DNA of 64,000 bases from Somniosus microcephalus (GCA_052327205.1 CM126204.1:124062001-124126000); one strand, 5' to 3'. Shown: positions 6,144 through 62,655, numbered from the stretch's first letter. The notes: generated by a model from the letters alone, not told the origin. Numbers and translations are program-made.

Positions 6144-6715
6144 GCGACAAACTGCACTCGTTTTGGAGAGAACACCAGTCGGGGTGGGAGCAAGAACAAG
6201 AAAAGTGAAAGCATCTAGTAAAATGTTATAGTTTGGGGATTTTTATTCATAATTAGAAACAAAGTTCAAATACCAGCTGTCGGTCTGGGCTGGACTGCTG
6301 TATAGAACAGTTGTAGCAAAAAGTAAACCGATAGATCCAGCTGCACAGAAGTGCAAATTTCTTTAAGCCAACCAAAGTGCCATGTCAGCCATGGAAATAT
6401 CCACAACCTAGAACTTCCTGCTTTGTTATCCAAAGGAACTTGGAGGAAAGTGTAGTGTGGCTGGCAACAGATGGATATAAGGGGATGACGATAAGGTGAA
6501 ATGTAAGTGAATGAAAAGGATAGTAGAGGTCAGTCAACTATTCATGCCTGTAAGCTTTACAATAATGTCCTGTAAATCGATAAATGCTGCACAATTATAG
6601 CTTCTGAAGTTATTTGTTGAAATATGATTGTTGCAAGATTTCATTTACAGCTAGCTGGCTGTTGGGTTGTTCCTGATTTTAAGCCTTTATATAATTCTGT
6701 TCCTCTGTTTTTCAG

Positions 6716-6815
6716 GAAACAATAAAGAGGAGGAAGAAGCAATGATGCAAGAGTGGTTTGTGTTGGTGAATAAGAAGAATGCCTTGATACGACGACAGAA
6801 CCAGCTTTCACTTTT
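6716..6815 (+). CDS. EHBP1: EHBP1 coding exon (bMERB domain): (G)[32 protein letters not shown](L)
   Basis: TTTTCAG acceptor, GTAAG donor, 100 bp; peptide nearly identical to the vertebrate EHBP1 C-terminus; phase joins the next exon (TT+G = Leu). Confidence 0.96.
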
Positions 6816-7199
6816 GTAAGTGCAAAGAAAACTAAACAAATAACCAGTGTATTTTGTCAAGTTGTATAATAATCTACATGAATGTAAAGCTGCATTTATA
6901 TGTCCATTTACTTTATTTACACGGAACTTTATTTCTCTCTGTTGTTAAAGGTTACTTGATTAGAATGTGTTTGTGAAATTCAGAAATAATGTTTATCAAT
7001 TGACAAGCAAAGCTCAATAATGTGGCACATCTGCAACATTCATTCTTGTTACTTTTATAATTCAATTTTAAATATTATATGATTTCTACTAATACCTAAT
7101 TTCACACTGTTTGAAAAGGGTGTGAGATTGGGTATTAGTAGGATTCTTTTCTTGGTTAGTGTAAGGATGTTGGTTTGTATTTTCATGAAGTTGTATAAA

Positions 7200-9449
7200 G
7201 AATGATTTGCATTTCTAGTGCTTCAAGTGCAGAGAAAACATCGCCAAAGTGCTTTTCAGGATGATGGACAAAGATGGGCCACGAAGCAGGGGGAGGAAAA
7301 GGAAATAGAGGGATGGGGTGGCAAAACATAGTGGAAGAGAAGCGCCTTAAGGAGGAAGGTGATGTGGGAGAGATACTAAGGAAGAGAGTTCCGGGGGCAT
7401 GCACATATGGCTGAAGAATTGAACAGAGGGAGCCAGGAACAAGGAATGGAGCAGAGTGAGTGTGCAGGGATTTGATTGTTGAGGTAGGATAGGGCAAAGC
7501 TACTGAGGAAAGCTCCAGCTCATCCAGGTCTTCCTGTTAGACAGGCAAGAGGTTGCAGAGAGTGGTAACGGCCTTGAGGGGATGATCAATGGTGGAGGCA
7601 GAATTGAGCCGAGGATCATCAACATACGTGTGGATGCTGATCCCATGCTTCTTGATAATGTTGCCATGGTATAACATATAAATGATGAAGAGGAAGGGTC
7701 AAGGATGGAGCCCTGGGGTATACCAGAGCTGACCATGCAGGCATAGGCAGAGAATCCATTGGAGGTGATATAGTACAAATGATGCAACAAGTAGGAGTCA
7801 GAGAGCAATGCAACAAAGGTGGACTGTAGAAGAGAGACAATTGAGGAGGAGGCTTTGGGCTGAGCAAAGGTAGCAGAGGAGGATCAGGAGGGACAGGTGG
7901 TCACATTCACACTCGCAAGCACAGGATGCCGTTTTCATGGCGACAGTGCTGTGGGCAAGGCAGGATAACAAACTGGGAATGGTGGGAGTGTAATTGCAAG
8001 ACCATAATTCATTCCAGAGAGAAAGGGAGCATTGGAGATGAGCCGTGATTGGACATAATGGAGGGGGTCAAGAGTAGGTTTTTAGAGATGAAGGATATTA
8101 ATGGCAGTTTTGAAGGATGTAGCAACCATGCTGGAAGATAGCAGCAGGTTGATGATGTCGACGCGCATGGAGCTAAGGACAGCAAGCTGGGACAGATGGT
8201 GTTTGAGGAAGCACATGGTGGACTTCATGGTTGCGAGGTGGTTAGTACGGTCTGATGGGGAGGTGGAGGATAAACTGGAGTAATGCAGGTGAGGACTTAG
8301 TTGGGAGATGGACTGGGAACAGGAAAGTAGAGGAGTCACTGAGGCAGAGGCAGCAGAATGGATGATCTTGTTTTGGGACATGAAGACATCCATGAAGTCT
8401 TCGCATTTGATGTCAAAGGTGAGGATGGAGAGTACAGTGGGGTGAGGTCGGAGGCAATTGTTAGAGATGTGCCCACAGGATGATATGTGGAACGGGAGTG
8501 ACTAGCCTTTGATGTATCCATGCCACATTTGACAATGGATAGCCAGAGTGGTTACTAGCCAAGATTGCTTAAGGTTACGGGCTATGGACTGGCTGTTGTA
8601 CCAATGGAGATGGTGGAGAAAGTGATCTAATGGGGATAAAGTGGGAATAAGACATTTTTTCAGATCAGTGGAGGTATTGGTATCATCATAAGTAGATCAA
8701 AGTTACGGTGAGATGCGAGTTGACATTTGTGAGGGAGTTGATGTGTAATTTTTTCCCAGGGGAGGAGAATGAGAGTGGAGGGGTTTGGCAGATGCAGAGG
8801 GATAAGTAGGAGAAGGGAGATCAGGAAAAGATTGGAGAGGATGTCAGTAACCGAGACCTAAGAGGTATCAAGACGCTGTATGATGCAAGGTCTAAGGGCA
8901 GGCCATTTGTGTGGGGGCATTGATGGGAGGGGAGACAAAGGAAGTCAGCTACGGTGTGAGAGGGTGAGCTAAGATGGAGGTTGAAATCACCAAGGATTCC
9001 CTTGGCGCAAGGACAGGGGGCAGAAAGGAGATAGGAGATTTCAGTGAGCAAGACACCTATCTGCCCTGGGGTGGGGCACTTAGATAAGGAGGACATGAAA
9101 GGAGTGGAGGAGGCTAAAGTGTTCAACTGTGGAAAAGGAACCAGAGGAATAAGGGGAAAGAACAAAGTAGGATTTGTAGATAAGTGCTACGCTAGCAACG
9201 TGACAGTTTACGTGGGGGACATGGTATAACGTCATGCCAAGTGGGCAGTCTTGGCGAAACAGATTTCAGTAAATCAAGATGTTGATGCACTCCTCCAGGA
9301 TGAGGTCATGTATGGAGAGGACCTTATTTGCAAGAAGGCAGATAATTTGTAGGATAAAGCGTAGTTGGCTGGAGACTCATCAGGGCAACAAGGAGACTTG
9401 ATTGGGGGTCAGAAAGGGCAAGTGAAGAAGCAGGAGGATGGAGAGAAGG
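7200..9449 (-). mobile_element. Degraded L2-clade LINE (RT and AP endonuclease remnants)
   Basis: Minus-strand fragments SSGIPQGSILDP (RT), SFKTAI and GILGDFNLHLS..GLPLDL (APE); reverse-complement L2 tail near 7205; many stops and frameshifts. Confidence 0.8.
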
Positions 9450-9523
9450 TTTGAATTATATGGAAAATGGTGGAAATACTCAGCAGGTCAGGCAGCATCT
9501 GTGGAGCGAGAAACAGAGTCAAT

Positions 9524-11388
9524 GGCCCTGATTTTCTGCCAGCCGTCGGGCGGCTTTCCAGGCAGCCGGGGGCTGAAAATCACCGAAAAAGTGGGTCGCT
9601 CCCCCCCCCACCCGCCTGATTCCCCACCCCATCCGACTTTCGGACCGCCGTTTCCCCGCGACCCGCTTCAGTCCCGCCCGCCGCTGGCGGGACTGGCCGT
9701 CGGAACACTAATAAGCAATTATTACCTTGTTTAAGTCGATTTTCAGGGGCCGTTGCGATTTTGGGGCTTTCCCCACATCAAACACGCCTGCGGGGAACCC
9801 CGCTGATGAAACCTGGCGTGAAGCTTGCCGGCTTGCTTGCTGCCAGCTGCAGGTCATTCGGAAAAGCTGCGATTTAAAGGGACAGCACTTGTATGTTGAA
9901 GGACCTTGTTGCTGAAGGCTTGGGGCTACTTCTTCAAGGCTTAGGCACAGCTGTGGAAGGTTGGAGCCTCACAAACTTCTCCAATGTGATCTCCTGAGAA
10001 GCCCCTCTCGCCACCCTCACTCAGCGCTTCCTCAGCGGAGGCATCTACGAGAAGCATGGGACGCCTTTTTTCCTTCCCTTGCCATTAGAGGATCTCCAGC
10101 AGCAGAGGCGGCAGCAGCAGAACCAGGAACAGCACGATGAGCACCAGGCTGCTGCTCACTCACCTGAAGCTGCACAGGCCAGAAGGGGCCAGCGCTTGGA
10201 AGTGGCTTGAGAACACCTTGCTGCGCTTTAGGGGGCCATGGGGACCCGTTTCTGCACTGGCAGTCCTACTCAGAAGGACTTCCATGAAAGTCTGGTTTCT
10301 CTGTTCAATAGATGGCCAACGCTCCTCAAGAGATGTCATTCTCTTATGAGCACTCACCATATTTTCCGTACCCTGGCGAGTTATCTCCTCCATGGAGGTT
10401 GCCAACCTTTCCATGGTGATGCGTTCATGCGCCAATGACTCCACAAAGGCTCTGCTTATGCTCGCTATGGACTCCTCCATTTGCTCCACACTCGCAGCGA
10501 CCCTGGAGACAAAACCTGCCAGAGACTCCTGCATCTGTGCATGGAGATCCATCACCTCTTCTCTTGCGGATGGACCCAGAGGGCAGAGGGCCGACATGCA
10601 GCGCAGCTGATCTGAGCTGGCAGAGTCCTGCGCCCTCCGACGAGGACTCTCCACTGCTGTCCCTGTCTCCAGAATCTGCTGAGGCTCACTTGTGAGCTGT
10701 GAAACACCAGGTGACAACACTACTCTATGTCCCAAATGTCCCCCCGAGGTGTGAGTGTCTGCGCTGGTGCTGGGTGCGCTTACTTCTGCTGACGCTGCGC
10801 CCTGAGTGGTTGGAGCTTCCTCTGAGGAGTCTGGCTGCACAGCCTCTTCCTCCTCCACAGTGAGGACGGGGGCTCTGGATGGTACTGTGGGGGAGTAAAG
10901 GAAGGAGTTAGAGATGTGATGCCAAGGTGACATGCACATTCGAGTTGACATCTGCTGACACCTGCATCCATGCAGCCTTGGTCTCAGTGGGAGGCCTCTT
11001 CCTGCCTGACCTAGGGAAGAGGACCTCCCTGTGGGCCCTAACCCCATCCAATAATGCCTGCAGTGAAGCTTTGTCGAATTTGAAGGCAGCTCGGGGTCTG
11101 GCACTGGCCACAGCTGCTGCAGGCTCCTCTGCCATCCTGTATGGTTCGTTTGGAAGCCTTCAGAGGATGCAGTGCTTGCTATGGACCTTGAAAGCACCAC
11201 GAATTATGACATCATACTGTGGGGCTTTCTGACTAGAAATGGACAATTAGCAAGGCTGCCCACATGCTGGGAATTAATTGGCCACTTGAGGGAAAATTGC
11301 GTGGAGCTGGCTGACATTTTTTTGTGTGTCAGAACCCCACATTCGGGGGAATCCGACCATTTCCCACACAAGCCACAAAATCGGGCCC
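9524..11388. mobile_element. Non-autonomous PIF/Harbinger DNA transposon (internally deleted) with Myb/SANT-like gene remnant
   Basis: TIRs GGCCCTGATTTT / AAAATCGGGCCC (10/12 match); 3-bp TSD AAT (9521-9523, 11389-11391); removing it restores the host repeat exactly; GC-rich interior. Confidence 0.85.
10160..11135 (-). pseudogene. Harbinger Myb/SANT-like DNA-binding protein remnant
   Basis: ORF 10908-11135 RAAFKFDKASLQALLDGVRAHREVLFP..TKAAWMQVSADVNS resembles the Myb_DNA-bind_5/MSANTD N-terminus; an acidic Ser/Thr-rich and coiled-coil-like segment follows in another frame (part of ORF 10160-11200). Confidence 0.7.
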
Positions 11389-11565
11389 AATGTTTCAGGT
11401 CGATGACCTTTCGTCAGAACATTCTGACAAAGGGTCATCAACCTGAAACACTGAATCTGTTTCTCTCTTCACAGATGCTGCCTGACCTGCTGAGTATTTC
11501 CACCATTTTCTGTTTTTATTTCGGATTTCCAGCACCTGCAGTATTTTGCTTTTGAATTATATGGA

Positions 11566-12270
11566 GATGGTTTGAGAGATTAACTGCAGAGAAATGTGCT
11601 GGGTGGGGAATGTGCTGAGAAAGGGGGATGAAGCAGTTTGGGTGACTGTTGCAGCAGAGAAACTGGCAGAAGCCATTGAGCGTGGTGAAAAATGCCAACA
11701 TTGAGGCAGATGAAGACCTTGGCAGTGAGAGACTGGAGTCAGAATTCCAATGAACCCAGCTCTGCCTTTGCAAGTGAGGTGGAGCGGAACCCATGATCGC
11801 TCAAATTGAAGGACACTGACCCGTCCCAAATTGCAGGGCATGGTTATTGTGTTCAGGGCAGGCGCCGGTGCCTGTAAGGAAAGACAGAGCAGCACCTAGC
11901 TACTCTACTAGGCTACCCTTCCCAAGCTAAAGGTAAACCAGCACTGAAAGATCTTCAGTTCCAATGGGATCTATAACTTTGGCAGCATATGAAGAGTCGC
12001 TCAGTGCAGAGGCTGAGGGGGGAAAGGAGGGACAATATCTCTGAGAAACTCGCGGTGGGGCGTTGGGGTGTTAGAGGAGGAGGCTTTTAGAGGTAAGGTG
12101 AGAGAGGTGGAAGAAGGCGAGGTGCTTGAAGGAGAAGAAGGAACCAGAGGAACGGGGGCAAGAGACCAAGGTGGGGTTGGTTTGATGATGAGGGCTCACT
12201 GCGGTGGTTTGGCCAGGGCAGGTAGGGGAATGTATACCAAAACCGTGAGGCGTCAGTAAGGGCAATGTGC
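11566..12270 (-). mobile_element. Probable 5' continuation of the interrupted minus-strand L2
   Basis: Resumes directly after the 15-bp TSD; same purine-rich plus-strand composition as 7200-9449; no diagnostic motif. Confidence 0.4.
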
Positions 12271-13662: not shown

Positions 13663-13990
13663 GAACATTGAAACATAGAAGATAGGAGCAGGAGTAGGCC
13701 ATTCAGCCCCTCGAGCCTGTTCCACCATTTAATGAGATCATGGCTGATCATCCAAATTCAGTACCCTGTCCCTGTTTTCTCCCCATGTTCCTTGATCCCT
13801 TTAGCCTTAAGAAATATATCTAACTCCTTCTTGAATATATTTAATGAATTGGCCTCTACGGCCTTCTGTGGTAGAGAACTCCACAGGTTCACCACTCTCT
13901 AGGTGAAGAAATTCTTCCTCATCTCAGTCCTAAATGGCCTACCCCTTATCCTTAGCGTCTGACCCCTGGTTCTGGACTTCCCCGCCATAG
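13663..13990 (-). mobile_element. CR1 LINE 3' fragment
   Basis: Starts GAAACATAGAAGATAGGAGCAGGAGTAGGCCATTCAGCCCCTCGAGCC, the reverse complement of the CR1 3' UTR/tail, followed by ORF2 C-terminal sequence. Confidence 0.85.
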
Positions 13991-14738: not shown

Positions 14739-14960
14739 CGTGCGGGTTAGGTTGATTGGCCATGACAAAAATTGGCCCTTAGTGTTAGGGGGGGGGTCAA
14801 ATACGTGGGGTTACGGGGATAGGGCTTGTGTGGGATGGCTGTCGGTGTAGGGACCGGGTGCTAGGGTTTGGATGATCAGCCATGATCTCGTTGAATGGCG
14901 GAGCAGGCTCGAAGGGCCGAATGGCCTACTCCTGCTCCTATCTTCTATGTTTCTATGTCT
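14739..14960 (+). mobile_element. 5'-truncated HE1-type SINE body fused to a CR1 3' tail
   Basis: GTGCGGGTTAGGTTGATTGGC..CCCTTAGTGTTAGGGGG shared with the copy at 5967-6017; then GATCAGCCATGATCTC..GGCCTACTCCTGCTCCTATCTTCTATGTTTC, the same tail as the CR1 at 13663. Confidence 0.75.
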
Positions 14961-15869
14961 TTGTTCTCTCTCAGCTCTTTCAACTGCTGAAACTCTGCTG
15001 AAACTTGACCTCTATCACTGGATTCATTGCAGACAGGACTTAGTTGACTGCACGGTTTGACTCAGAGGCTGTGGCGCTGCTCTGCTTTTCAGTCACTTCA
15101 AGTCTTAAGCTGCAGAATTCTTTTGTCAAATTGGTTTACGATCTCCTGGACTTCTCTGGACAACGTTTCTGCTTTGAACTACATTGGATTACACTATGTT
15201 TCTGCACTGGATTACACTGTAAGACTTACCTGCTTTGTCTCTATCTTTGCTGCAAAAAGATTTTTACCTTTAAACTGCAGCTGTGTCTCTGCTGAACTGG
15301 TTCTACTCGTTTTTCAACTCTGCTGGCCTCTAGCTAGCAGCTGTTGCTCCACTTGCTGTCCGGTGACTCGTTCTACCGGTTTTCAGTTTTGCTGGTTACT
15401 GGCTTGTGGTTTTACTTTTTCTCCGCCACTTTGATTGATTCTTACAGCAACAACCTCCATCCTCAAACTCTCTACCCTTCAAATAGCTTCTGGACTTCAC
15501 TCACCTGCTTTGGACAGCAGTTCGGCGATACTCCATGCCAGCCCCATCCTGCTTACGTCGGCTTTGTCCTTCCATGGGACCTTTGACTTTGACCCTGGCC
15601 TCCCTACTATTGTCCCCAACCTATTCCCTGCTACCAGGAAATATGTATTCCATTAATTACTACATTTAAACAGGCCAATGTAACCTGAGCTTTTCTCATG
15701 TCCATTCACGTGCGCGCTTTGGCTGCCACTCCGGACCCAAGCCATTCCATTTTTTCCCCCTATTTTCCGTTTCTCTCTATCCCTCCCTAACTGCTCTCTC
15801 CTGTCATTATGCCTCCTTTCATCTCTCCTCTCTTGGATACACTGCCCATCAAATCCCTACCCCAATCCA

Positions 15870-18072
15870 TCATTACTCTTCAACCGTCTTATTCTCCTGC
15901 CGCCGACCCAGGCTTGACTCCCTCTTAGATAAGCCTACAGCTTCCCTCTGTGCCTCTCTTGGCATCCTACAAAGGGCCCATCCAGGCACTTGTTTCTGCC
16001 GCCTTACGAGCAGCAACCCCAACTGTCCCATCCTACTCTCTCGCCGACCTTCCCACCCAGCGCACCCACTGGGGACAAATCTTGCAAATCTCCTCCCCAT
16101 CCAACTCAGCCCCCCCAGCACTGACCCTGTGGATGCTGGCAGTGGGGCAGCCATCACCGACCCTCTCCGCATCTCCCTCCAGAACGTCCGTTCACTTACG
16201 AACAAGGCCCTTGCCATCCATGAGTTTATTGCGGATGATTGCATCGACATCATGGCCCTGACGGAAACCTGGCTGAGGAGTGATGACACCTTACCCTTAA
16301 ATGAAGTCTCCCCGCCTGGCTATACATTCCACTATTTGCCCTGCTCAGACCGCCATGGTGGCGGTGTGGCTCTCATCACCAAATCATACCTTGGTCTGTC
16401 CCCCTATTCCTATGGCAGTTTCTCCTTTGAGCATCTCACCTTATTCCACCCCTCTCTTCTCACATTTAAAATTCTTGTTCTCTACTGCCCACCCAAGTAC
16501 CATAAAATTTTTATTGCTGAGATATTTTCACTGCTCTCCTCCCTCAGCCTCTGCACCGAACAACTTCTCATCCTCGGTGATTTCAACCTCCATCTCAATT
16601 CATCATGCTCTCTCTCCTCTGAGTTTACTAGCGTCCTATCCTCCCTTAATCTCTCCCTCCATGTAAACTCCCCAACCCATATTCACAGCCATCCCCTCAA
16701 CCTTGCCATCTCTCGTGGCCTCGCTACTCCCATCATGTCAATCGCAGATAAGGCTAACTCTGACCACTTCATCATATCGCTCTCCACCCACATCCCCCTT
16801 CCACCCCTTTCCCCCCCAACCCTACCTCCTTCTGTCCGTCCCTGGAAAAACCCTCTCCAACTCTCTTAGAACTGCACTTATGAAATCCCAACTGTCCAGC
16901 CTTTGGCCCTCCATTCACCATGACATTTCTGCAGCTACCGATCTGCTCAGCCACACCCTCACCATCACCTTTGATGCCCTAGTCCCTACTAAAACAATTA
17001 CTCTCTCACCCTGGGCGTTCCCCCTGGTACGGCTCTCATCTTCACTCCCTTAAGTCCAGAGGATGCAGACTTGAATGGATATAGCGGACAACTGGTTTAG
17101 CCATTCACTGCCAGATCTGGCTGGACCACATAAAGCATTTCGGGTCCTGCTCTCATCTGTCAAAATTGCTCACTATTCCAGAATCATTCTGGAATGCAAA
17201 GATAAACCGCGGCTCCTATTCTCTACTGCTAACCATCTTCTTAAACCCCTCTCCCCTGTCTCCTCCACCCTCATCTCCAACAACAAGTGTGAAGAGCTCA
17301 TGGACTTTTTTGTCTCGAAGATTGAGACCATCCGTTCAGCTGCCTCTGCCACTTCCCTTCCTTCCCCATGCCCACCGGGCCAAACTTCCTCTAAGGTTCC
17401 CCCCTGCCCTAGCCCTGAACTCGCATCTTTCTCCAGTTTCTCTCCGATCTCCCCTCATGCCCTTTCTGAGGTCATCTTGTCCATGAGACCCACTTCCTGC
17501 TCCCTCGACCCTATTCCCACCAAACTGCTGACCACCCAACTTCCTTTTCTGGCCCCCATGTTAGCTGACATTGTTAATGGTTCTCTCTCCTCCGGTACTG
17601 TCCCCCTCTCCCTCAAATCTGCCGTCATCACCCCTCTCAAAAAAACAACCCTTGACCCCTCTGTCCTTGCAAACTACCGCCCCATCTCCAACCTCCCTTT
17701 CCTCTCCAGTCCTTGAACATGCTGTCGCCTCCCAAATCCGTACCCATCTGTCCAGCAATTCTATGTTTGAATCCCTCCAATCAGATTTCTGCCCTTGCCA
17801 CGGTACCGAAACGGCTCTCATCAAAGTCACAAATGACATCCTTTGTGACTGTGACAAAGGTAAACTATCCCTCCTCGTCCTTCTTGACTTATCTGCAGTC
17901 TTTGACCCGGTTGACCACTCCATCCTTCTCCAACTCCTCTCCACCGTCGTCCAGCTAGGTGGGACTGCACTCGCCTGGTTCCATTCTTATCTATCTAATC
18001 GTAGCCAGATCAGATGTTAACGATGTTTTACTACGTTAAAGGTGCTATATAAATACAAATTGTTGTTGTTGC
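15870..18072 (+). mobile_element. L2-clade LINE (APE plus 5' half of RT, internally deleted, with tail)
   Basis: ORFs 16129-16869 (LQNVRSL, MALTETWL, GGGVA, ILGDFNLH), 17075-17716 (LDPIPT, NYRPISNLPFLS) and 17571-18020 (HGTETALIKVTNDI, LLDLSAVFD); L2 tail TTACTACGTTAAAGGTGCTATATAAATACAAATTGTTGTTG. Confidence 0.92.
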
Positions 18073-21461: not shown

Positions 21462-24400
21462 GTGTTGTCAGCTGGAGGAGCTTGAGCTCCAGGTTTCAGA
21501 GCTTGAGCAGCAGCTGGTGTCACTGCGGTGCATCCATGAGGCGAGAGCTTCGTGGATAGCACGTTTCAGGAGGTGGTCACCCCGCAGCTAAGGAGTGTGC
21601 AGGCAGACAGGGAATAGGTGACTGCTAGACAGAAAAGGAGGACCGGGCAGGTAGTGCAGGAGTCCCCTGAGTGTATCTCGCTCTCCAACCAGTATTCGGT
21701 TCTGAGTACTGGTGAGGGCAATGGTTCCTCTGGGGAGTACAGCCAGAGCCAAGTCCGCAGCACCATGGGTGGCTCAGTTGTACGGGGGGGAGGAAGAAGA
21801 GTGGGAGAGCAATAGTGGTCGGGGTTTTGATAGTATGGGGAGCAGACAGGTGTTTCTGCGGCCACAGACGTGACTCCAGGATGGTATGTTGCCTCCCTTG
21901 TGCCAGGGTCAAGGATGTAACTGAACAGCTGGAGAACATTCTGAGGGGGGAGGGTGAACAGCCAGAGGTCGTGGTCCATATTGGTACCAACGACATAGTT
22001 AGAAAGAGGGATGAGGTCCTGCAGGCAGATTTTAGGGAGCTAGGAAAGAGATTAAAAAGCAGGACCTCAAAGGTAGTAATCTCCAGATTACTCCCAGTGC
22101 CACGTGCAAGTGAGTATAGAAATAGGAGGATAGAGCAGGTGGATGAAGAGATGGTGCAGGAGGGAGGGCTTCAGATTCCTGGGGCATTGGGACCGGTTTT
22201 GGGGGACGTGGGACTTGTACAGGCCGGACGGGTTGCACCTCAACAGGGCTGGAACCAATATCCTCGCGGGAAGGTTTGCTAGTGCAGTTGGGGAGGGTTT
22301 AAACTAATTTGACTCGGAGATATTCCTGGTTATAAGGTGTTCAGGAAAGATGGGGAAAGAAAGATAGGAGGTGGTGTGGCAGTATTGGTTAAGGAGAATG
22401 TTAGTGCTGGAGAGGTAGGATGTCCTGGAGAGGGCAAGGACAGAATCTATATGGATGGAGTTAAGAAATAATAGAGGTGCCATTACACTACTAGGTGTAT
22501 TCTACAGACCACCAAATAGTGGGAAAGATCTGGAGGAGCAAATTTGCAGAGAAATTACAGAGAGGTGCAAGAACTATAGAGTAGTGATAATGGGGAACTT
22601 CAACTATCCTAATATAGACTGGGATTGTAATAGTGTAAAGGGCAGAGAAGGGGAAGAATTTCTGAAATGTGTTCAGGAGAACTTTCTTGATCAGTATGTT
22701 TCCAGCCCGACGAGGGAGGAGGCATTGCTGGATCTGGTTCTCGGGAATGAGGTAGGTCAAGTGGAGCAAGTGTCAGTAGGTGAACATTTAGGGAACAGTG
22801 ATCATAGTATCATAAGGTTTAGATTAGCTATGGAAAAGGACAGGGAGAAATCTAGAGTAAGAATGTTTAATTGGGGGGAAGGCCAATTTCAGTGGGATGA
22901 GAATGGATCTGGCCCGGGTAAACTGGAATCAAAGATTGGCAGGCAAAACTGAAGTGAAACAATGGGCTGCCTTTAAAGAGGAAATTGTTCGGGTACAGTC
23001 GAGGTACATTCCCACGAGGGGGAAAGGTAGGTCAGAGTTCCCTGGATGACGAAACAGATGGCCAATATGATGAAGCAGAAAAAGAGGACGTATGACAGTT
23101 GCAAATACATCTGAGAATCAGGCTATATACAGAAAGGTCAGAGGAGAAGTGAAAAAGAAAATAAGAGGGGCAAAGAGAGGGTATGAGAATAGAATGGCAG
23201 CCAGCATAAAAGGTAATCCAAAAGTCTTCTATAGGCATATAAATAATAAAAGGGTAATAAGAGGAGGGGTGGGGCCGATTAGGGACCAAAAAGGAGACCT
23301 ACACATGGAGGCAGTGGGTATGGCTGAGGTACTAAATGAGTACTTTGCATTTGTCGTCGCCAAGGAAGAGGATGCTGCCATAGACATAGTAAAGGAGGAG
23401 GTAGTGGAGATACTTGACAATATAAAAATTGATAAAGAAGAAGTATTGGAAAGACTGACTGTACTTAAAGTAGATAAGTCACCAGGAGCGGATGGAATGC
23501 ATCCTAGGATGCTGAGGGAATTGAGGGCGGAAATCGCGGAGGTACTGGCCAAAATATTCCAATCCTCCGTAGATACGGGGGTGGTGCCAGAGGACTGGAG
23601 AATTGCAAATGTTACACCATTGTTCAAAAAAGGGTGTAAAGATAAACCCAGCAACTACAGGCCAGTCAGTTAAACCTTGGTAGTGGGGAAGCTTTTAGAA
23701 ACAGTAATCGGGGACAAAATTAACAGTCACTTGGATAGGTGTGGATTAACTAAGGAAAGCCAGCATGGATTTGTTAAAGTCAAATCATGTTTAACCAACT
23801 TGATAGAGTTTTTTGATGAGGTAACAGAGAGAGTTGATGAGGGTAATGTGGTTGGCGTAGTGTACATTGATTTCCAAAAGTCGTTCGACAAAGTGTCACA
23901 TAATAGGCTTGCCAGCAAAGTTGAAGCCCATGGAATAAAAGGGACATTGGCAGCATGGATACGAAATTGGCTAAGTGACAAGAAACAGAGAGTAGTGGTG
24001 AACGGTTGTTTTTTGGACTGGAGGAAGGTATATAGTGGTGTTCCTCAGGGGTCGGTTCTAGGACCACTGCTTTTCTTGATATATATTAATGACTTGGATG
24101 TGGATGTACAGGGCACAATTTCAAAATTTGCAGATGACACAAAACTTGGAAGTATAGTGAACAGTGAGGAGGAGAGTGATAGACTTCAGGAAGTCATAGA
24201 CAGGATGGTGAAATGGGCGGACACGTGGCAGATGAAATTTAACGCAGAAAAGTGTGAAATGATACATTTTGGTAGAAAGAATGAGGAGAGGACATATAAA
24301 CTAAATGGTACAATCCTGAAGGGGGTGCACGAACAGAGACACCTAGGGGTATATGTGCACAAATCGTTGAAGGTGGCAGGGCAGGTTGGAAAAGCAGTTA

Positions 24401-25020
24401 AAAAGGCTTACGGGATCCTGGGCTTCATAAATAGAGGTATAGAGTACATAAGTGTGGAAATTATGATGAACCTATATAAAACACTGTTCGGCCCCAACTG
24501 GAGTACTGTGTCCAATTCTGGGCACCACACTTTAGGTGGGATGTGAAGGCCTTAGAGAGGGTGCAGAAAAGATTTACAAGAATGATTCCAGGAATGTGGG
24601 ACTTCAGTTACATTGATAGACTGGAATAGCTGGGGTTGTTCTCTTTGGAGCAGAGAAGATTGAGAGGAGATTTGATAGAGGTGTTCAAAATCATGGGGGT
24701 GCTGGACAGGGTAGATGGAGAGAAACTGTTCCCATTGGCAGAAGGGTCGAGAACCAGATGACACAGATTTAAGGTAATTGGCAAAAGAACCGAAGGCGAC
24801 ATAAGAAAAAAAAATTTTACTCAGCAAGTGGTTAAGATCTGGAATGCGCTTCCTGAAAGGGTGGTGGAGGCAGACTCAATCTGGAGTTGGATAAGTATCT
24901 GAAGAGAAAACATTTGCAGGGCTATGGGAAAAGGGCAGGGGAGTGGGACTAGCTCAGAGTCCGCATGGACTCGACAGGCCGAATGGCCTTCTTCCATGCG
25001 GTAACCATTCTATGATTCTA
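21462..25020 (+). mobile_element. CR1 LINE, long copy (ORF1 SGNH esterase, ORF2 APE + RT), inactivated
   Basis: ORF1 MVCCLPCARVKDV..VVVHIGTND; ORF2 GVFYRPPN, MGNFNYP, KSPGADGMHPR, NYRPVS, QHGF, GVPQGSVLGP, KFADDTKL; tail ATTCTATGATTCTA; stops, frameshifts and a deletion at the ORF1/ORF2 junction (~22310). Confidence 0.95.
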
Positions 25021-32390: not shown

Positions 32391-34785
32391 CTTTTAAATT
32401 ATTTATAAAACTTATATGTTATGTTCTCTCCTTCCAACTAATTTCTATCAAAGTAGGAAATGTGTAAAATATTAGTCATTTGACATTATGTGATGCCATA
32501 TCTTGCCCAAGTGAGTTATGGTGACTTATTGGATAAATGAAATACACCAGTAACACAATCACTTGAGTCACATTTTGTTTAGGTAGTAGATGACTTAATT
32601 TGAAATTCATAAATATCAGATCTGTCGCACTTTTTTGGTTGGTTCTTGGATATTGGAGCCAATGAAGAAACACTTTAGCAATGTGTTCACTCTCTCTGAA
32701 TATATAGGGGAGATTTTCCTCTCTGAGCATCTGTAGGACATTCATCTGGTGCATTGCACTTGAGGGGCATTGTGCCTAAGAGAAGGCAGATGCCCCTTTT
32801 TTTTGCATGGGCGGGAGGAACTCATGCTACAGGCTATCCCGTTGGCTGGGCCCTGCACCCTCAAAATGTTGGAGGCCTGGAAAACAGCAACCAGAATGCC
32901 CCAAGTGCCCCTAATTCCCCAGGGGGGGAGGGGGGGATTGTCTTCAGTATGGTCCCGCAACCCTCACAGAGCACCCAGTCTGGGGCAGGCACCTGCACCA
33001 GTTTTCAGCAGGCACTCCTGTTAGGTGCTGAATGAGCAGACTGAGAATAAGAGATCAGGATCTGCCTCATTTAAATGCAAAAGCTGGCCCTGCCACATTC
33101 TAAGTCCAGTTACATTTTCTGGGAAAAGCCCTGGAAATCCTCATGCCTCTCAAAATTTTCTCCAATCCCAGAATCTGATCTCTCCTTGTTTCTATGTATA
33201 ATATATACTGAACTTACATAGTTTGCTGCAACTTGCTGTAGGTAATGACGGGAAGATCCACTACTCACGCAATAAGTTGAAGTGATTCTCTACAGTAGTT
33301 AATCCATCATTGTGATTGTTGTGCTAACTCATTGGAGCATTATGGCCTTTGTTGTCTGTCTTTACATCCATTACTGTGGCCAAATATATGTATATACATG
33401 CCATATATAACGCACACACTCGCGCGCATGCACACATCACACACACATGCACACCAAATATATAATTAGTTTTTTCAATTCAAGAGTAATGAGTGATTTC
33501 AAGGAAGTAATCTCACTTACACACAAATTTAACACACAGACTACCCCATGCAGTGTTTTCGTGACATTCCAAGAATGGTCTGCTGTTAAAGGTAACAAAG
33601 ATCCTCTGGCTTATTATCCCTGGGAGCCACAGGTAAGTGGAGAGTGAAACTGATGGATAACTCTTCTGAGGTGTCCCTCATCCCTATAAGAAGGTTCCTG
33701 ACCTCTGCTCACCCCTTCTCCACAACATTGCTACCACAATCAGGATTAGCACTTTGTGTTGATATGCCAATGAGTCAAGCTACTACATTAACCTGCAGGG
33801 TATTCAGTATCATTGAAAAATGTACTGTCATATTACATTTAGGATAGTATGCTTTATTAAAACTGAATTTCATATAAGGAAGTTCGAGAAATGGATAGAT
33901 TGCAAGATTACCCCATTTCACAGACACAGTATTGAACAAAAGTAACCTGACGATGATTAATTACTTTAAATCATATTGGAAATATGACAGAATAAACTTG
34001 TGAGCAACAAAATGTAGTTAAAATCTGAGGTAGAAAGCAAAAAATGGCAAAGATTCATTACTTGTACTTTGGTTCTTTGAACCTTTAGTACGTAAAGGGT
34101 AAACTTGTTGCAATCATGCAAAACCTCTCTGCACCAATGCAAATGTATTTTCAAGCCTGGCATTAGTTTAAAGGCTGTGCTTCAAATACTGTAAACAGAA
34201 TAGCATCTGAATTTTGTTTGAACTCAGCCACGACATGCAGAATTTTTTTCCAAAAATTATGTTTTATAGACAATTCATTTTGTTGTTTTCCTTCCCAGTT
34301 TCTCCATCTTCCTCGCTGCATTGTGCTAATGTCCTATTTTTCTTGCAATGCTGACTCCAGCAAGGCCACCAAAACAGAGTGGAACCTCAACTTCTGTGAT
34401 ATTTCTAATTTAGGTACATTTAATACTGACAAGTTGCAGAATGTACTTTTTTTTTAAGCCGCAAGTATTTTAACACTTGTGCTAGGACTAGTGCTAGTTT
34501 TGGTACCATAGAAGTAAACATTTACTCTGAATGGTTAAACGGTGCTGAAATTATTTCAGTTACTTTGTTGAATATAATGAGCATTATTTTGTTTACCAAA
34601 TGGATTTCTAATATCATAAATATATCTGATGATTGTAAGCTCACTTGTTGTATTTTGACATGATATGACCCCAGTGCAATTGGGGGCAGACATACTTTCA
34701 ATATATACGACTCACTCCCATAAATAAAACTTGTTTCAAAAAATTCTTAATTTTCCTATATTTGAGGAAAATAACATACAGTGCA

Positions 34786-36078: not shown

Positions 36079-36877
36079 CCATGCGACCCCCGCAACATTA
36101 ACCATTTCAGGCCTCAGTCTCAGTGAGGGCTGTCGTCATTGGGCCTCCTCAGGTGCTGCAGCAGCTGTGTCACTGCTACACCAGCAAAAATTCTATTCTG
36201 TGGCAATGGCACATTCCCTCGGAGTGGCAGTTACCCTGCTGGGAGGCCACCTTGCACGCCAGATGAGCCTCAACCAAGGAAAATGGGTCAGGGTTACAGC
36301 CAGATCACAGCACCAAGAAGTAGGGAATCCATCCCCGAGTGTCAGCAGGCAATTCCACCATGGGGAGCATTACAACCAAACTTGACATTCACACACCTGT
36401 TCTTTCCAGCAGCTTAGCTCAGTGTTGTATGTTGCAGTTATCCACAGAACTATCAGGGAGGACTGATAGTTGCAACTTTCTACCTTTGTATTCATTCATT
36501 CATTGAAGCCTATATTACCATATATATTAAACCACATGCTTGGCCCAAGAGGTCATAATTTGCAAATTATTTATTTCTTGGACCTGACTTTTTATTCTTG
36601 AACTAACCTCTTACAGTTACAGCCTAAGTGCTTTCATTGCTTTTTAGTCCAGCACTCAGCCCTCCCTACATCCTTCCTCGATGCAGCCACTCTACCTATA
36701 TCTTATTGTTTTACCTCCTGATCTCTCCATCTCCAGTTTTTATTGTTTCTGTTTCCAGATCAACTCAATCCCTCCACTTTCCAACCATGTTTTCTCAATC
36801 AGCAACATCAGACTAAGGCTTGAGGTCAAATAATTGTTATTTGACCACTTCACTTGACTGGTCCTTGTTACACTGTG

Positions 36878-37468: not shown

Positions 37469-39973
37469 TGGGAGGGAGAGGCACCTTCACAATAAGCCTT
37501 TAAAGCTTTTTTTGAAATAACGTTAGGAAGCCTGCTCGCTGGCTTTCCACTTTTACAGAGTTAGCTATTCCGTTTGCACCTTATTGTATTCATGCACAAA
37601 ATTACGTAAGTTATGAATTCATCATACAATCTTATTCCCATATGTGAGAAAATACTTGGGTTCCTTGGGGTTGTTTAGTAATTTCTTGTGATCGGAAATG
37701 TCGCTGGTAATCAGACAACTCCAATGAGCAAAGCTGCCTGCCTGTATACAATACACAAGTACAGAGCGCTGTTTCTCCCCATTCCACAGCCATGGGGGTG
37801 GGCAGTAATACTGCGACCGCCTGCTCACGGTACTGGTAGGTGCTAGGTGCAGTGCAGTAAACTGGGGCATAAAAGGAATGGTTTGAGTCACGCGGTATGC
37901 CAGGCTTATAGCCTAAGAGGTCTGGCAATATTCTGTGGTTGCTCTTAAAATCATTACTTTTGGCAGACATTAAGACTTTATTTAGCACCCTAAATGTATG
38001 TTAGTCCACTATTATTATGGGGCTTTGTTTTAATTTAAAATTTGATTTACCCATACATGTTAAAGTATCGGGAATTTTTTAATTAATCTATGTGGAAAAA
38101 AATGCTGCCTGACTCAATTCTAATTATGGTGGCACGTTTGTGGGGAGATGTATCTAAATTCTGAACTTGTAAATCCTCTATAAAGCATCAGTCCCGCAAG
38201 AACCTCCAGCATGTACAGAGCTGCTGAGCCTGTTTGTTGTCTGCAGCGGATTTTGCATGGGAGGGGGTTGGTGCTGTTTGCAATGGCGCATTCTTGTGTT
38301 GCTTATGAAGATTCACATGGTAACGGTTGATGTGCATTGTTGGATTTATCTGAATGCAACAGCCGTGTGAGTTTAACGTGAAAGCCTAGGGCAGTGGTGG
38401 GGGCTAAATCCGAGTAGATTGCACACTCTGTTTGGGAAGTAGAGAGGGGGCTGTTTCATTACTTTAGTGGCTTTGGATATTGAAGCTGGTGTCCGATTTC
38501 CCTGGACTATGGTTTGTTCAGGTATCTCTGTCAGCAACTACTCGTCCTTTCTCATTGTTTACTTTCTTAATGAGCTGGGCGGAGCCGATCGCCTGCTGAT
38601 TGACAGCTACAAGCTGCTGGTGTGGGGCGGCCAGCGAGACCTGCTCAGCCAGCCCTCAAACCCTTTACCCCTCAAACCCTCTCCTCCCACAACCTGCGGA
38701 CAAGGGCATTTGGGCAATTCGACAGTCGCCTTTCTCAAAAATTAAGAATGACGAATTGTTAAAACGCATACATTTAAATAATCTAGATTAAAATTGAACC
38801 ATAAGTTTTTTAAATCTGCAGCCTTCATTGGTCTTTGAACTGGAAGTTAGTTGGCTAAATTGATCAAATCTACGTTGAGAATTGCTAATTTACTATGTAC
38901 CTGTCTCAATGTGCTGGCTTTCTGTTTTCCCTTAAGTAGATGCATGTTATATACACTCTTATTTAAAGGTATGCTGTGCTGTTTGTTGCGTTACACAAAA
39001 TACCAATCTTAAAAGTTACTTAAAACCATTTTGAACTTGTATTTTTAAAAAGTTGTTTGCTAAGAATGTGCTGAAATCCGAGTTGTGTTCTTTATGCAGT
39101 GGAGTTTCTGGCGCCTCTTGCATATTAAGCCTGATATGAACGGATTGAACCACGCGTTTGACAATTTAGTTAATTCTTGATGGGCAGGGGATAGTAAATC
39201 TGTAGAATACTATTGATAACATTTGAGCCCGCCCGGTGATGCATTTCTCTGGTGAAGTGGTTGTAAAGTATACGCCGTGCTGAAGAATGCAGCAACTCAC
39301 TTTGCTGGAGTTTTGCTGTTCTCTGTTTATACACAGCGCATGCAATGTTCTGTAATAAGCAGAGTTTGTTTACCTTTTAAAGGATTGAATATTTGGGATA
39401 TATTTGGTGTTTTGGGATCAAAATGTCACTGGCGCACACACCAAAAGAGAAACTAATGCCGTTTGTACCAGAAATAAATAACGACGTCCCCTGCGCCTCT
39501 TTCTGCTGACAGGTAATGCAGCGGTAAAGCCAACTGAAAGAATGCAGAAAGCCGAAACTAAATGTTGGGCTACACTGTGGCACCAAACCCCGAATAAAGT
39601 CATCGTTCCTCTCACCAACGTAACGTGGTCATTCTAACCTGTGGCGAGAATGGGTTATGTAACCAGCACGCTGTGATTAAAACATAACGCTGTTAATGAA
39701 GGTATTTGTTGTGTATAATCGCAAAACTCGTGAAATAATCGATTGAATCAACTTGGAAAGTTTGAATGTATGAAAATGCCCAGTTCCAAATTGTTTGAAC
39801 TGTAATGGCAGATGATTGCCAATGTCTGCTTGATGCTTTCAAAACCAACTATCATTTCTAAATACTACTTGGTTTACACTTGGAGTTTCGGGTAATACTG
39901 AGAGTTTAAGCAGAAAACAAAAAAGTACTCCTAGCAAACAGAGAATAAATGTACTGTATACTTGTGTTTTCAG

Positions 39974-40088
39974 ACTGGCAGAAAACAGAAGCACAGAAGC
40001 GACGTGAACAGCTCTTGCTCGATGAACTAGTTATTCTAGTTAACAAACGGGATGCACTTGTCCGAGATTTGGATGCCCAGGAAAAACA
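39974..40088 (+). CDS. EHBP1: EHBP1 coding exon: (D)WQKTEAQKRREQLLLDELVILVNKRDALVRDLDAQEK(Q)
   Basis: TTTTCAG acceptor, GTAAGT donor, 115 bp, in phase. Confidence 0.97.
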
Positions 40089-40190
40089 GTAAGTATTCCA
40101 CTGGGAAAGGAAACTCTTCCATCTCCATACTGGCTTAAAACTTTTCTCATTGTTTAAGTATACTGACCGGCTGTGTACCGATATATACAA

Positions 40191-48076: not shown

Positions 48077-49538
48077 TGATGTATATCCAATCCTCCCGAG
48101 GAAAGATTAAAAGACTATCAGAACTTCACTGTAGGACAAGCTCGATGTATTTGAATTGTCACTTTTCTCCAGTTTTATCATGAGCCAAGTCACCAGTTGG
48201 AATCGTCACTTTAATCTTCTAACCGCCATTACTGTACAATTCGCCTAATTACAAGGTACATACGCAACTTGATAAAAACAAGACATTTTAGGATGGATGA
48301 AGTTTAAAAAAAAAAAAAAAAATCAGATACTGTGAAGTAGAGGAAGATTAAAATCCCTCGAACGAGTGCCTGTAATTAAGGAACGTGCGCCTGTAGGATT
48401 ATCTCATTAGTTCATCAGGACACATCTACAATAATGAATTCTTAATCACATGAATGATTCCTTTAATCGCCAGACATACGCCGGTTGCAATTGTGGAGAA
48501 CATTCAACTCCAAAAAGTTATACTGGTGATGGAGTGGACTGGCGGCTGCAAAGTTCGAGCTCCCGCTGCCCCCCCTCATACTTGGTTTTATCCCCATAAA
48601 TGCTTTACATTTTTTAACAAGGCTACAGAAGTGAGTCAGAGTTGGTGGACTATTTAAATTTGGAGTTCTACCTCGCGGTGTAAAAGGAAGATACGTTTTG
48701 GGGGCCAGTGCTTGGTCTAACATTTTTGGGAACCTTTTCAGTATTCACTCCACAATAGTTATAAAACTAAGTTTTTGGAACATTTTTCTTGCCTTAATCC
48801 AGGAACCAGTACTTTAATTGTGGCCTAGTGGTGCCTGATACAAATAATGTTAGTGATTTTATGGATCTTGTTGACCAAGTTCCATGTCCCACTCTGCGGA
48901 AAATGACCAACATTTGTGCTGAGTCCCCGAAACCCTACCGCCATTTTGGATTCGCTAATCTTTTAGACCATTTCCACTTTACCAGAACAGTAAACTGTTG
49001 AATCCAAAATCGACATCCTCCTGTAAGGAATAACTTGAGGCTCCGGCCAATTTTTTTTTTTTTAAACGCTGGAGTAGAAACGGCCAATTTTTCCAATCCT
49101 TGTGGATGCTCATTAAATGTTAATTTCAAAAAAAGTTAATTTCAATGCAGATTTATTGCAGGGCAGATGAGATTAATATTTAGATCTGTTCACTGCATGA
49201 TTGCTGACTCTCAAGCCGAACAATGATTAAATGTTTCTGAACTATCCCGTGTTCTGTAATTAACACAAATCTATTAAATTGCGGTTTTCTGCCCACCTGT
49301 ACCTCGGACACGTCAGTCACGGCCATTCATGTTTTCCATACTGAAATGCAATGACTTATTTGACTCTAAAGCATTCTATCCTCTGATTATAACGGGCCTT
49401 AGTAAAATATGTAAAAAAATATTTTTTTTAGCGAACACGAAAGCTGACGAGGATCGGACTTGGGGACCATCCGAACTGCAACCGGAAACTAGATTTTAAG
49501 TTTTGAAGATTTGGAGAGCAGATTGTACAGTTTTTAGC

Positions 49539-62440: not shown

Positions 62441-62447
62441 AAATCAG

Positions 62448-62655
62448 CTGTTGGAAGTACACAACAGGTCAGGCAGCATCTGTAAAGAGGAGACCGGTTA
62501 TGATGTTTTGGATGTATACTCGTCAATCTTCTGTACTGACAACGCATAATTAGAATTTCAAAATCTGTCTTTTCTCTAGATGCTGCCTAACCCACTGTGT
62601 AGTTCCAACATTGCTTTTATTTCAGATTTCCAGCATATGCAAATTTTCCTTTTAT
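62448..62655. mobile_element. Older palindromic Penelope-like terminal-repeat remnant
   Basis: TGTTGGAAGTACACAACAGGTCAGGCAGCATCT ... AGATGCTGCCTAACCCACTGTGTAGTTCCAACA followed by TTTTATTTCAGATTTCCAGCA, the same architecture as 9465-11550. Confidence 0.65.

Follow-up and report, generated by a model that had tools for sequence, protein, structure and literature searches.

A 218-bp palindromic insertion in Somniosus microcephalus, probably a strongly truncated Penelope-like element with two hammerhead motifs

We have analysed a stretch of 64,000 nucleotides from Somniosus microcephalus (GCA_052327205.1 CM126204.1:124062001-124126000), referred to below as the window. Between positions 9450 and 11565 it carries a short palindromic insertion, which is interrupted by a Harbinger-like DNA transposon and holds one hammerhead ribozyme motif on each strand. 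In our judgement this 218-bp insert is probably (probability about 0.8) an extremely 5'-truncated insertion of a Penelope-like element (PLE) in which both hammerheads are inactive. The features on which this reading is built, together with a second copy elsewhere in the window, are given first; target-site duplication is abbreviated TSD.

Anatomy of the insert

9450-9464, no strand: left TSD copy, 15 bp, A or T at 12 of 15 positions
9465-9523, minus: distal part of the left (inverted) arm, holding, at 9520-9518, the 3' strand of helix I of the minus hammerhead and, at 9521-9523, one copy of the inner element's TSD (AAT)
9524-11388, minus: Harbinger-like non-autonomous DNA transposon, 1,865 bp, with a 3-bp TSD (AAT) and imperfect terminal inverted repeats (TIRs, 12/15)
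11389-11420, minus: minimal type I hammerhead, with the 5' strand of helix I at 11420-11418, the core at 11417-11411, a bulged A and a 5-bp stem II
11396-11389, minus: 3' side of the same hammerhead, with GAAA at 11396-11393, then C15.2, A16.2, U16.1 and U17 (11389)
11421-11508, plus: right (direct) arm, 88 bp, complementary to the left arm at 80 of 88 positions
11421-11455, plus: inactivated hammerhead motif, with G8>A (11429), U16.1>C (11451), and one stem-II pair (11440) and the outer helix-I pair gone
11509-11550, plus: unpaired 3' tail, 42 bp, in the position and of roughly the size of the one-sided PLE tail (30-40 bp)
11551-11565, no strand: right TSD copy, identical to the left one
~62445-62652, no strand: second, older copy, consisting of an inverted arm, a 9-nt spacer between the cores, a direct arm and a tail

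The insert is bounded by a perfect 15-bp TSD (9450-9464 and 11551-11565), whose sequence occurs exactly twice in the window and not at all on its minus strand. The match cannot be extended by a single base at either side, and the chance of such agreement at a fixed offset is 8e-10. With 80% A+T, the duplicated target is also richer in A and T than its flanks (52%). Excision of the inner element together with one AAT leaves exactly 218 bp between the TSD copies, and no A-run is found at either end of these 218 bp. An earlier description made from the sequence alone (the sequence-only reading) had proposed both the 15-bp direct repeat and an insert of about this length, and both were borne out.

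The best inverted axis lies at 11420/11421, where 80 of 88 positions are paired (36% at the runner-up axis). It was on this axis that the sequence-only reading had placed two arms of about 90 bp; the axis stands, the arms are in fact 88 bp each, and a 42-bp unpaired tail added by the right arm (11509-11550) had been overlooked. The tail shortens to 40 bp when one allows for the 2 bp by which the arm overlaps the left TSD. The 218-bp insert thus contains an inverted, shorter terminal copy joined head to head to a direct one. Eight of 88 positions differ between the arms, and three of these, G8 and the central base among them, are CpG>CpA changes of the plus arm; the window as a whole is CpG-depleted (observed/expected ratio 0.41). 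The 9-mers at 11472-11480 and 11530-11538 are nearly complementary (8/9), a comparable pair exists in the second copy, and F-P-A-S-A at the 9-mer site in 6 of 13 related proteins is compatible with a perfect 9-bp family stem enclosing the end of the short arm. It is possible that this stem serves as a structure for initiation by reverse transcriptase (RT). The 130-bp unit alone folds no better than shuffled sequences (z = -0.4).

Two hammerhead motifs on opposite strands

Both hammerhead motifs of the sequence-only reading are present, the minus motif in the quoted form only when the Harbinger-like element is removed, as the 3' strand of its helix I lies at 9520-9518. Their plan is that of the minimal hammerheads of PMC4209133: CUGANGA, a bulged H, stem II, GAAAN, NUH and a short helix I, without helix III. 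The minus motif keeps all 12 invariant bases (C3, U4, G5, A6, G8, A9, G12, A13, A14, A15.1, U16.1 and H17), and departs from the published consensus only at 10.1-11.1 (A-U) and at 15.2/16.2 (C.A). Where that consensus has G10.1-C11.1 and a palindromic 15.2/16.2 pair, the plus arm has G.U at the former and both arms have C.A at the latter. Each deviation of the minus motif is also seen in a PLE-type motif of the coelacanth Latimeria (PMC4209133, Fig. S3). The base bulged between positions 9 and 10.1 is an A, and the 5-bp stem II forms with a pair probability of 0.79-0.86 in the isolated minus arm. Its helix I has 3 bp only in the state before the Harbinger insertion and forms with a probability below 0.01 as a monomer. 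In the plus arm the invariant core is broken at G8 and U16.1. Thus, the view that both cores are mutated holds for the plus core; in the minus core all invariant bases are intact.

A minimal-hammerhead descriptor (core, perfect stem II of at least 4 bp, and U16.1/H17) gave one match in the window, the minus arm, compared with 0.097 per shuffled window (300 shuffles); when all three helix-I pairs were required as well, the chance expectation fell to 0.01 per shuffled window. With one core mismatch tolerated, 17 matches were obtained, against 12.9 in shuffles, which is chance level, and the plus motif was found only in this way. It is identified as a hammerhead because it is the inverted copy of the minus motif. 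Two other sites with a CUGACGA core on the plus strand are probably chance occurrences: the one at 33947 has a weak stem and lacks the NUH and helix-I features, and the one at 49444 is followed by a weak stem and does not match the full descriptor. The remaining relaxed look-alikes in the window are at chance level. Rfam gave no matches at gathering score in the whole window. In the hammerhead search suggested as a check along with the sequence-only reading, the descriptor detected the minus arm only, and the Rfam models detected no hammerhead.

Within the 35-nt motif the arms differ at six positions, four of which damage the sense copy (11421, 11429, 11440 and 11451). The difference at 11455 also breaks the outer helix-I pair of the sense copy, and that at 11432 is neutral. 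We do not claim selection against sense-strand cleavage, as three of the arm changes are CpG-type and a single locus is concerned.

Several observations bear on whether either motif could cut. The 3-bp duplication of the Harbinger-like element is the minus motif's own cleavage triplet (16.2-16.1-17), so the 3' strand of helix I has been moved to a distance of 1.87 kb, and only two G.U pairs can still form. The two motifs cannot dimerise in cis, since they lie on opposite strands and no transcript carries two sense copies. The local hairpin 11389-11453 has a predicted stability of -39/-45 kcal/mol (z = -10.9, none of 200 shuffles being as stable), and in the presence of both arms the hammerhead fold can be forced only at a cost of 31-45 kcal/mol, compared with 3.2 kcal/mol for the minus arm alone. 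In read-through RNA, each motif is predicted to pair with its antisense twin and to be sequestered in the hairpin. It was reported that minimal hammerheads show no activity as monomers and weak activity as tandem multimers (PMC4209133), and that cleavage by the minimal hammerhead of an anole PLE needed the PLE protein (PMC11167929). What silenced the minus motif was probably the arrival of the Harbinger-like element together with the antisense partner, rather than any change in the core, and neither hammerhead is expected to be active at this locus. The sequence-only reading had called them probably inactive, which agrees with the folding penalty, the transposon in the cleavage triplet and the antisense twin. 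Today the insert is predicted to have no catalytic role and to yield at most intronic double-stranded RNA, the host pre-mRNA reading the dead plus motif.

Penelope-like origin and possible mode of integration

PLE insertions have been described as 5'-truncated, often with an adjacent inverted truncated copy and with a 30-40-bp tail at one end (PMC8557442, PMC8969392). Rotifer PLEs have TSDs of 8-10 bp, AT-rich targets and palindromic head-to-head junctions (PMC3846280), and minimal hammerheads are located in the pseudo-long terminal repeats (pLTRs) of PLEs (PMC4209133). In one survey PLEs were detected in 23 of 23 vertebrate genomes, elephant shark included (PMC4350176); the species names in Table S1 and Fig. 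S3 of PMC4209133 include no cartilaginous fish. With endonuclease-positive (EN+) PLEs (Penelope/Poseidon, Neptune and Nematis; PMC8557442, Fig. 2 legend, and PMC3846280) the insert shares a direct and a shorter inverted copy arranged head to head, as well as the one-sided tail, the palindromic junction, the AT-rich TSD and the hammerhead in the repeat; it differs in having no sequence from an open reading frame (ORF), and its clade is not assignable without an RT. By analogy, the insert appears to behave like a truncated EN+ PLE insertion, whose non-coding hallmarks it bears. Opposite-strand dual motifs 100-700 bp apart have been ascribed to truncated PLEs, and opposite-strand pairs were reported from Schistosoma and from a wasp PLE (PMC4209133). 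Such pairs have been known since 2014, and the present locus is a further example, in which the cores of the two motifs are only 6 nt apart.

The second copy is 77-79% identical to the first, with the same 3' end and a tail of its own, and it likewise inverts just upstream of the hammerhead core; its arms are identical at 61 of 86 positions. No third copy emerged when the window was searched by nhmmer with the four arms (the next match had E = 1.1), and the weak translated similarity at 36708-36764 does not represent one. When the 44-aa open frame of the right arm was used to search 1.84 billion protein representatives, nine matches of 54-152 aa were obtained, and none among four longer candidate proteins. 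A profile built from a 10-row alignment gave one match among 8,000 scored long candidates and eight among 1,104 near-length candidates, five of them already in the query. The nine short proteins look like chance ORFs across dispersed copies, and in seven of these nine representatives mutual similarity stops at the tail end. Over the core, two relatives read Leu-Met-Lys and one Pro-Met-Lys, compared with Leu-Thr-Lys in the first copy; the Met variant is compatible, indirectly, with a CUGAUGA core. In the profile search an RNF14 isoform of Heterodontus francisci and an enolase-phosphatase isoform of Heptranchias perlo each start with the translation of the repeat, and two further related proteins share flanks with one of the others (P0006). 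As the named relatives come from two sharks, the family is a shark repeat, one that we presume to be common in shark genomes and probably catalogued. No published description of this hammerhead-bearing shark family was found in the literature searched, which excluded Repbase, Dfam and subscription journals; a look at the crocodilian 'Chompy' repeats turned up one paper, without a description. A 31-nt degenerate pattern had no match in GTDB genomes, phage records or plasmid records. The PLE reading is strengthened by the one-sided tail, the second copy of the same layout and the shark relatives. The proposal of the sequence-only reading that the locus is a non-coding insertion of hammerhead-bearing, PLE-type terminal sequence only is likewise supported.

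It should be noted that several points weigh against this reading or against the mode of integration proposed below. First, neither RT nor GIY-YIG sequence is attached to the first copy (218 bp between the TSDs) or was found in the 13 related proteins (one reading frame searched), and Pfam families were found in none of the nine short relatives, two of the other four proteins having host-gene domains only; PLE membership therefore rests on non-coding anatomy. Second, the 13 sub-threshold Rfam matches in 11300-11650 include no hammerhead family at E <= 10. Third, the TSD has 15 bp, compared with 8-10 bp in rotifer PLEs (PMC3846280), and the tail, at 40-42 bp, is at or just above the published 30-40 bp, being slightly longer when taken as 42 bp. 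Fourth, no TSD could be recognised around the second copy, and 9 nt separate its cores, compared with 6 nt in the first. Fifth, the ends of the TSD and of the element share 2-3 nt, which may be chance in U-rich sequence, priming in the anole PLE being reported without homology (PMC11167929). Sixth, the nicks here are not at ATT, which is preferred at the nick of the anole Poseidon element PAc (PMC11167929). Finally, two-primer copying and cDNA fold-back lead to the same final structure.

The RNA template appears to have been uncut, because both arms span the cleavage site and the whole hammerhead core. For the steps beyond this, what we infer is modelled on the anole PLE, whose protein was shown in vitro to cut both DNA strands and extend them, to begin at two sites bounding the tail and to use unprocessed RNA (PMC11167929). 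The RT/GIY-YIG protein of the element would have made staggered nicks, 15 bases apart, in the two strands of an AT-rich target, giving rise to the 15-bp duplication. Reverse transcription would have been primed by the bottom-strand 3' end at the end of the tail and by the top-strand 3' end some 42 nt further upstream; the stretch between these two start sites would be the tail, in line with in vitro measurements on the anole PLE. From the two nicks, only the 3'-terminal 130 and 88 bases of an uncleaved terminal-repeat RNA would have been copied; the two copies would have ended at an identical position, 3 nt short of the core, and been joined head to head without a spacer, the central mismatch being CpG-type. 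Later decay, by CpG-type G>A changes and U16.1>C, would have killed the plus motif, and the Harbinger-like element would have entered one arm, displacing the helix-I partner of the minus motif. While PAc supplies this mechanism, together with the uncleaved RNA template and the protein-assisted hammerhead, it starts in an AC-rich stem-loop, whereas both ends are U-rich here (PMC11167929).

The same PLE origin could also have involved fold-back, in which the cDNA (or an antisense template) was self-primed at the junction and an endonuclease resolved the intermediate, leaving the tail one-sided. This alternative is a serious rival, although we consider it less likely than not. It is the published view of head-to-head palindromes (PMC3846280, Discussion) and of the tail (PMC8557442), and at two positions the arms of a given insertion carry the same variant while the insertions differ from each other, as a single template would predict. 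However, fold-back should leave a loop remnant or use an existing palindrome, and the first copy is spacerless, given a CpG-type change at its centre. Two relatives (P0006 and P0010) read C-S-F-P-V-L just upstream of the core, which suggests, indirectly, that the native upstream sequence is not a palindrome half, and both strands were extended in vitro (PMC11167929). Within a PLE origin, we therefore modestly favour two-strand priming over fold-back.

A more doubtful alternative is a dedicated non-autonomous PLE family, with a short RNA transcribed from a terminal-repeat promoter, reaching from the 5' edge of the hammerhead to the tail and mobilised in trans, and with the palindrome as its standard product. 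Both copies in the window invert at most 10 nt upstream of the core (inter-core spacers of 6 and 9 nt), both arms of the first copy end at an identical base, and pLTRs are reported to suffice for trans mobilisation (PMC3846280). On the other hand, only two copies were seen, two relatives share sequence farther upstream, so that longer forms exist, and 5' truncation of PLEs is common (PMC8557442, PMC8969392). Until copy statistics exist, truncated PLE insertion is a better name than a distinct mini-element family. We regard as unlikely, and put forward only as a conjecture, that sharks harbour a standard ribozyme-only Penelope product, in which a short uncleaved RNA always begins with the first base of helix I, each nicked target strand primes one copy of it, and the two cDNAs are fused without a spacer; a fixed 5' end of this kind would explain why both copies in the window invert at the ribozyme's edge.

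A miniature inverted-repeat transposable element or fold-back DNA transposon, with the motif arising by chance in long TIRs, would account for an insert that is short, non-coding, strongly palindromic and placed between direct repeats, but it is very improbable: in both copies the inverted repeats leave 42 bp beyond them at one end and so are not terminal, a spacer is lacking, and a match to the PLE minimal-hammerhead consensus like that of the motif is expected by chance 0.01-0.1 times per window. DDE transposases are not known to make TSDs as long as 15 bp, and a DNA transposon with TIRs was rejected for the outer insert on account of the one-sided 42-bp extension and the 15-bp TSD. A short interspersed nuclear element or a twin-primed fragment of a long interspersed nuclear element (LINE) was also rejected: there is no Rfam match, the same segment is duplicated in the arms and no match to the LINEs of the window was found. 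Non-LTR retrozymes (bioRxiv 10.64898/2026.07.22.740005; PMC7229834), reported in one chondrichthyan genome by the former source, resemble the insert in being non-coding, hammerhead-bearing and related to PLE pLTRs. Theirs are head-to-tail tandem, same-strand and dimerisable motifs, whereas those of the insert are head-to-head, on opposite strands and not dimerisable, and a retrozyme was rejected for this reason.

Nesting order, host locus and significance

9000-11900, minus: decayed LINE region encoding an apurinic/apyrimidinic endonuclease, collinear to the left and right of the insertion, with tblastx E = 5e-21 to the LINE frame 15670-16869
~6655-6816, plus: bMERB-domain exon, 40.3 bits
25632-25781, plus: bMERB-domain exon, 15.5 bits, below cut-off
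39949-40089, plus: bMERB-domain exon, 45 bits
49539-52685, plus: three Otx1-type exons, following the last bMERB-gene exons, which lie within 6655-40528

The three layers are nested in the order LINE, 218-bp insert, Harbinger-like element. At the outermost level, the LINE homology, to a frame (15670-16869) that carries PF03372, is collinear on both sides of the insert and reaches 8 nt into the 15-mer; a length difference of about 29 nt from the comparison LINE makes a single TSD copy in the empty site not provable. The host LINE is presumably of the L2/CR1 type. At the innermost level, deletion of one AAT restores the colinearity of the arms. The inner element is flanked by AAT left and right, 12 of the 15 outermost positions match between its ends, and it contains a 347-aa open frame (10160-11203), for which no usable match was found. 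Its Myb/SANT-like segment (10911-11135) matches PF13873 with E = 0.0016 and 18.8 bits, below the 21.7 cut-off, and has an Atlas score of 0.89, which is a lead only. No DDE transposase was found among its ORFs of at least 150 aa, the size to which the scan was limited. The element fits a non-autonomous Harbinger, in that a 3-bp TSD, TIRs and a Myb-like ORF are the hallmarks of PIF/Harbinger elements (PMC9179366). It differs from them in its TIR match of 12/15 bp, compared with the typical 25-50 bp (PMC9179366), in the lack of a DDE transposase in that scan and in a Myb match under the Pfam cut-off. No Harbinger was found in the elephant shark, and other cartilaginous fish were suggested for checking (PMC9179366); the present element points to a Harbinger-like transposon in one of them.

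The insert is intronic, because exons of a bMERB-domain gene on the plus strand lie on both sides of it, and its dead plus motif runs in the sense direction. We take the gene to be EHBP1-like, going by the synteny. The segment 11454-11477 of the plus strand, in the sense of the host intron, has a pyrimidine tract followed by CAG and ATG and resembles a splice acceptor. Two shark gene models (P0011 and P0013) start with the peptide encoded there, which, as far as the sequences go, may mean an exonised repeat or a misleading gene prediction. That the insert is a useful intronic hairpin or ribozyme of the host gene, such as a microRNA precursor, an editing substrate or a splicing regulator, is highly improbable: it is intronic, sense-directed and a stable hairpin, and related copies begin two shark gene models, but its best microRNA match scores 26 bits where the cut-off is 75 bits, mutations have hit the sense motif, a transposon interrupts one arm and, with 8/88 arm differences, there is no sign of constraint. 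Elsewhere in the window, a decayed LINE at 15670-18020 (plus) has an endonuclease frame and a weak RT frame, and another at 21700-24900 (plus) has a strong RT frame (PF00078). A 110-bp inverted pair (13665-13773 and 14849-14958, 89% identical) is unrelated to the insertion and presumably represents two LINE 3'-end fragments in opposite orientation. An assembly gap of 148 N (311-458) is distant from the insertion.

Taken as a single locus, the insert is an ordinary fossil with clean three-layer nesting, and its value is that of a minimal example of Penelope integration. The origin of the inverted repeat and the tail of PLEs, and the role of their hammerheads, have been stated to be open (PMC8557442, PMC11167929). 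At this locus the cleavage site is contained in both copies, an argument for an uncut template, and each copy ends at the ribozyme's edge. The locus also points to a hammerhead-bearing repeat family of sharks without a description in the literature searched. If the junction recurs genome-wide in sharks, the mechanism would become testable by counting alone. Should a fixed RNA 5' end prove true, these palindromes would be a natural record favouring two-strand priming on sense RNA over antisense self-priming, and would show that the hammerhead stays uncut during integration.

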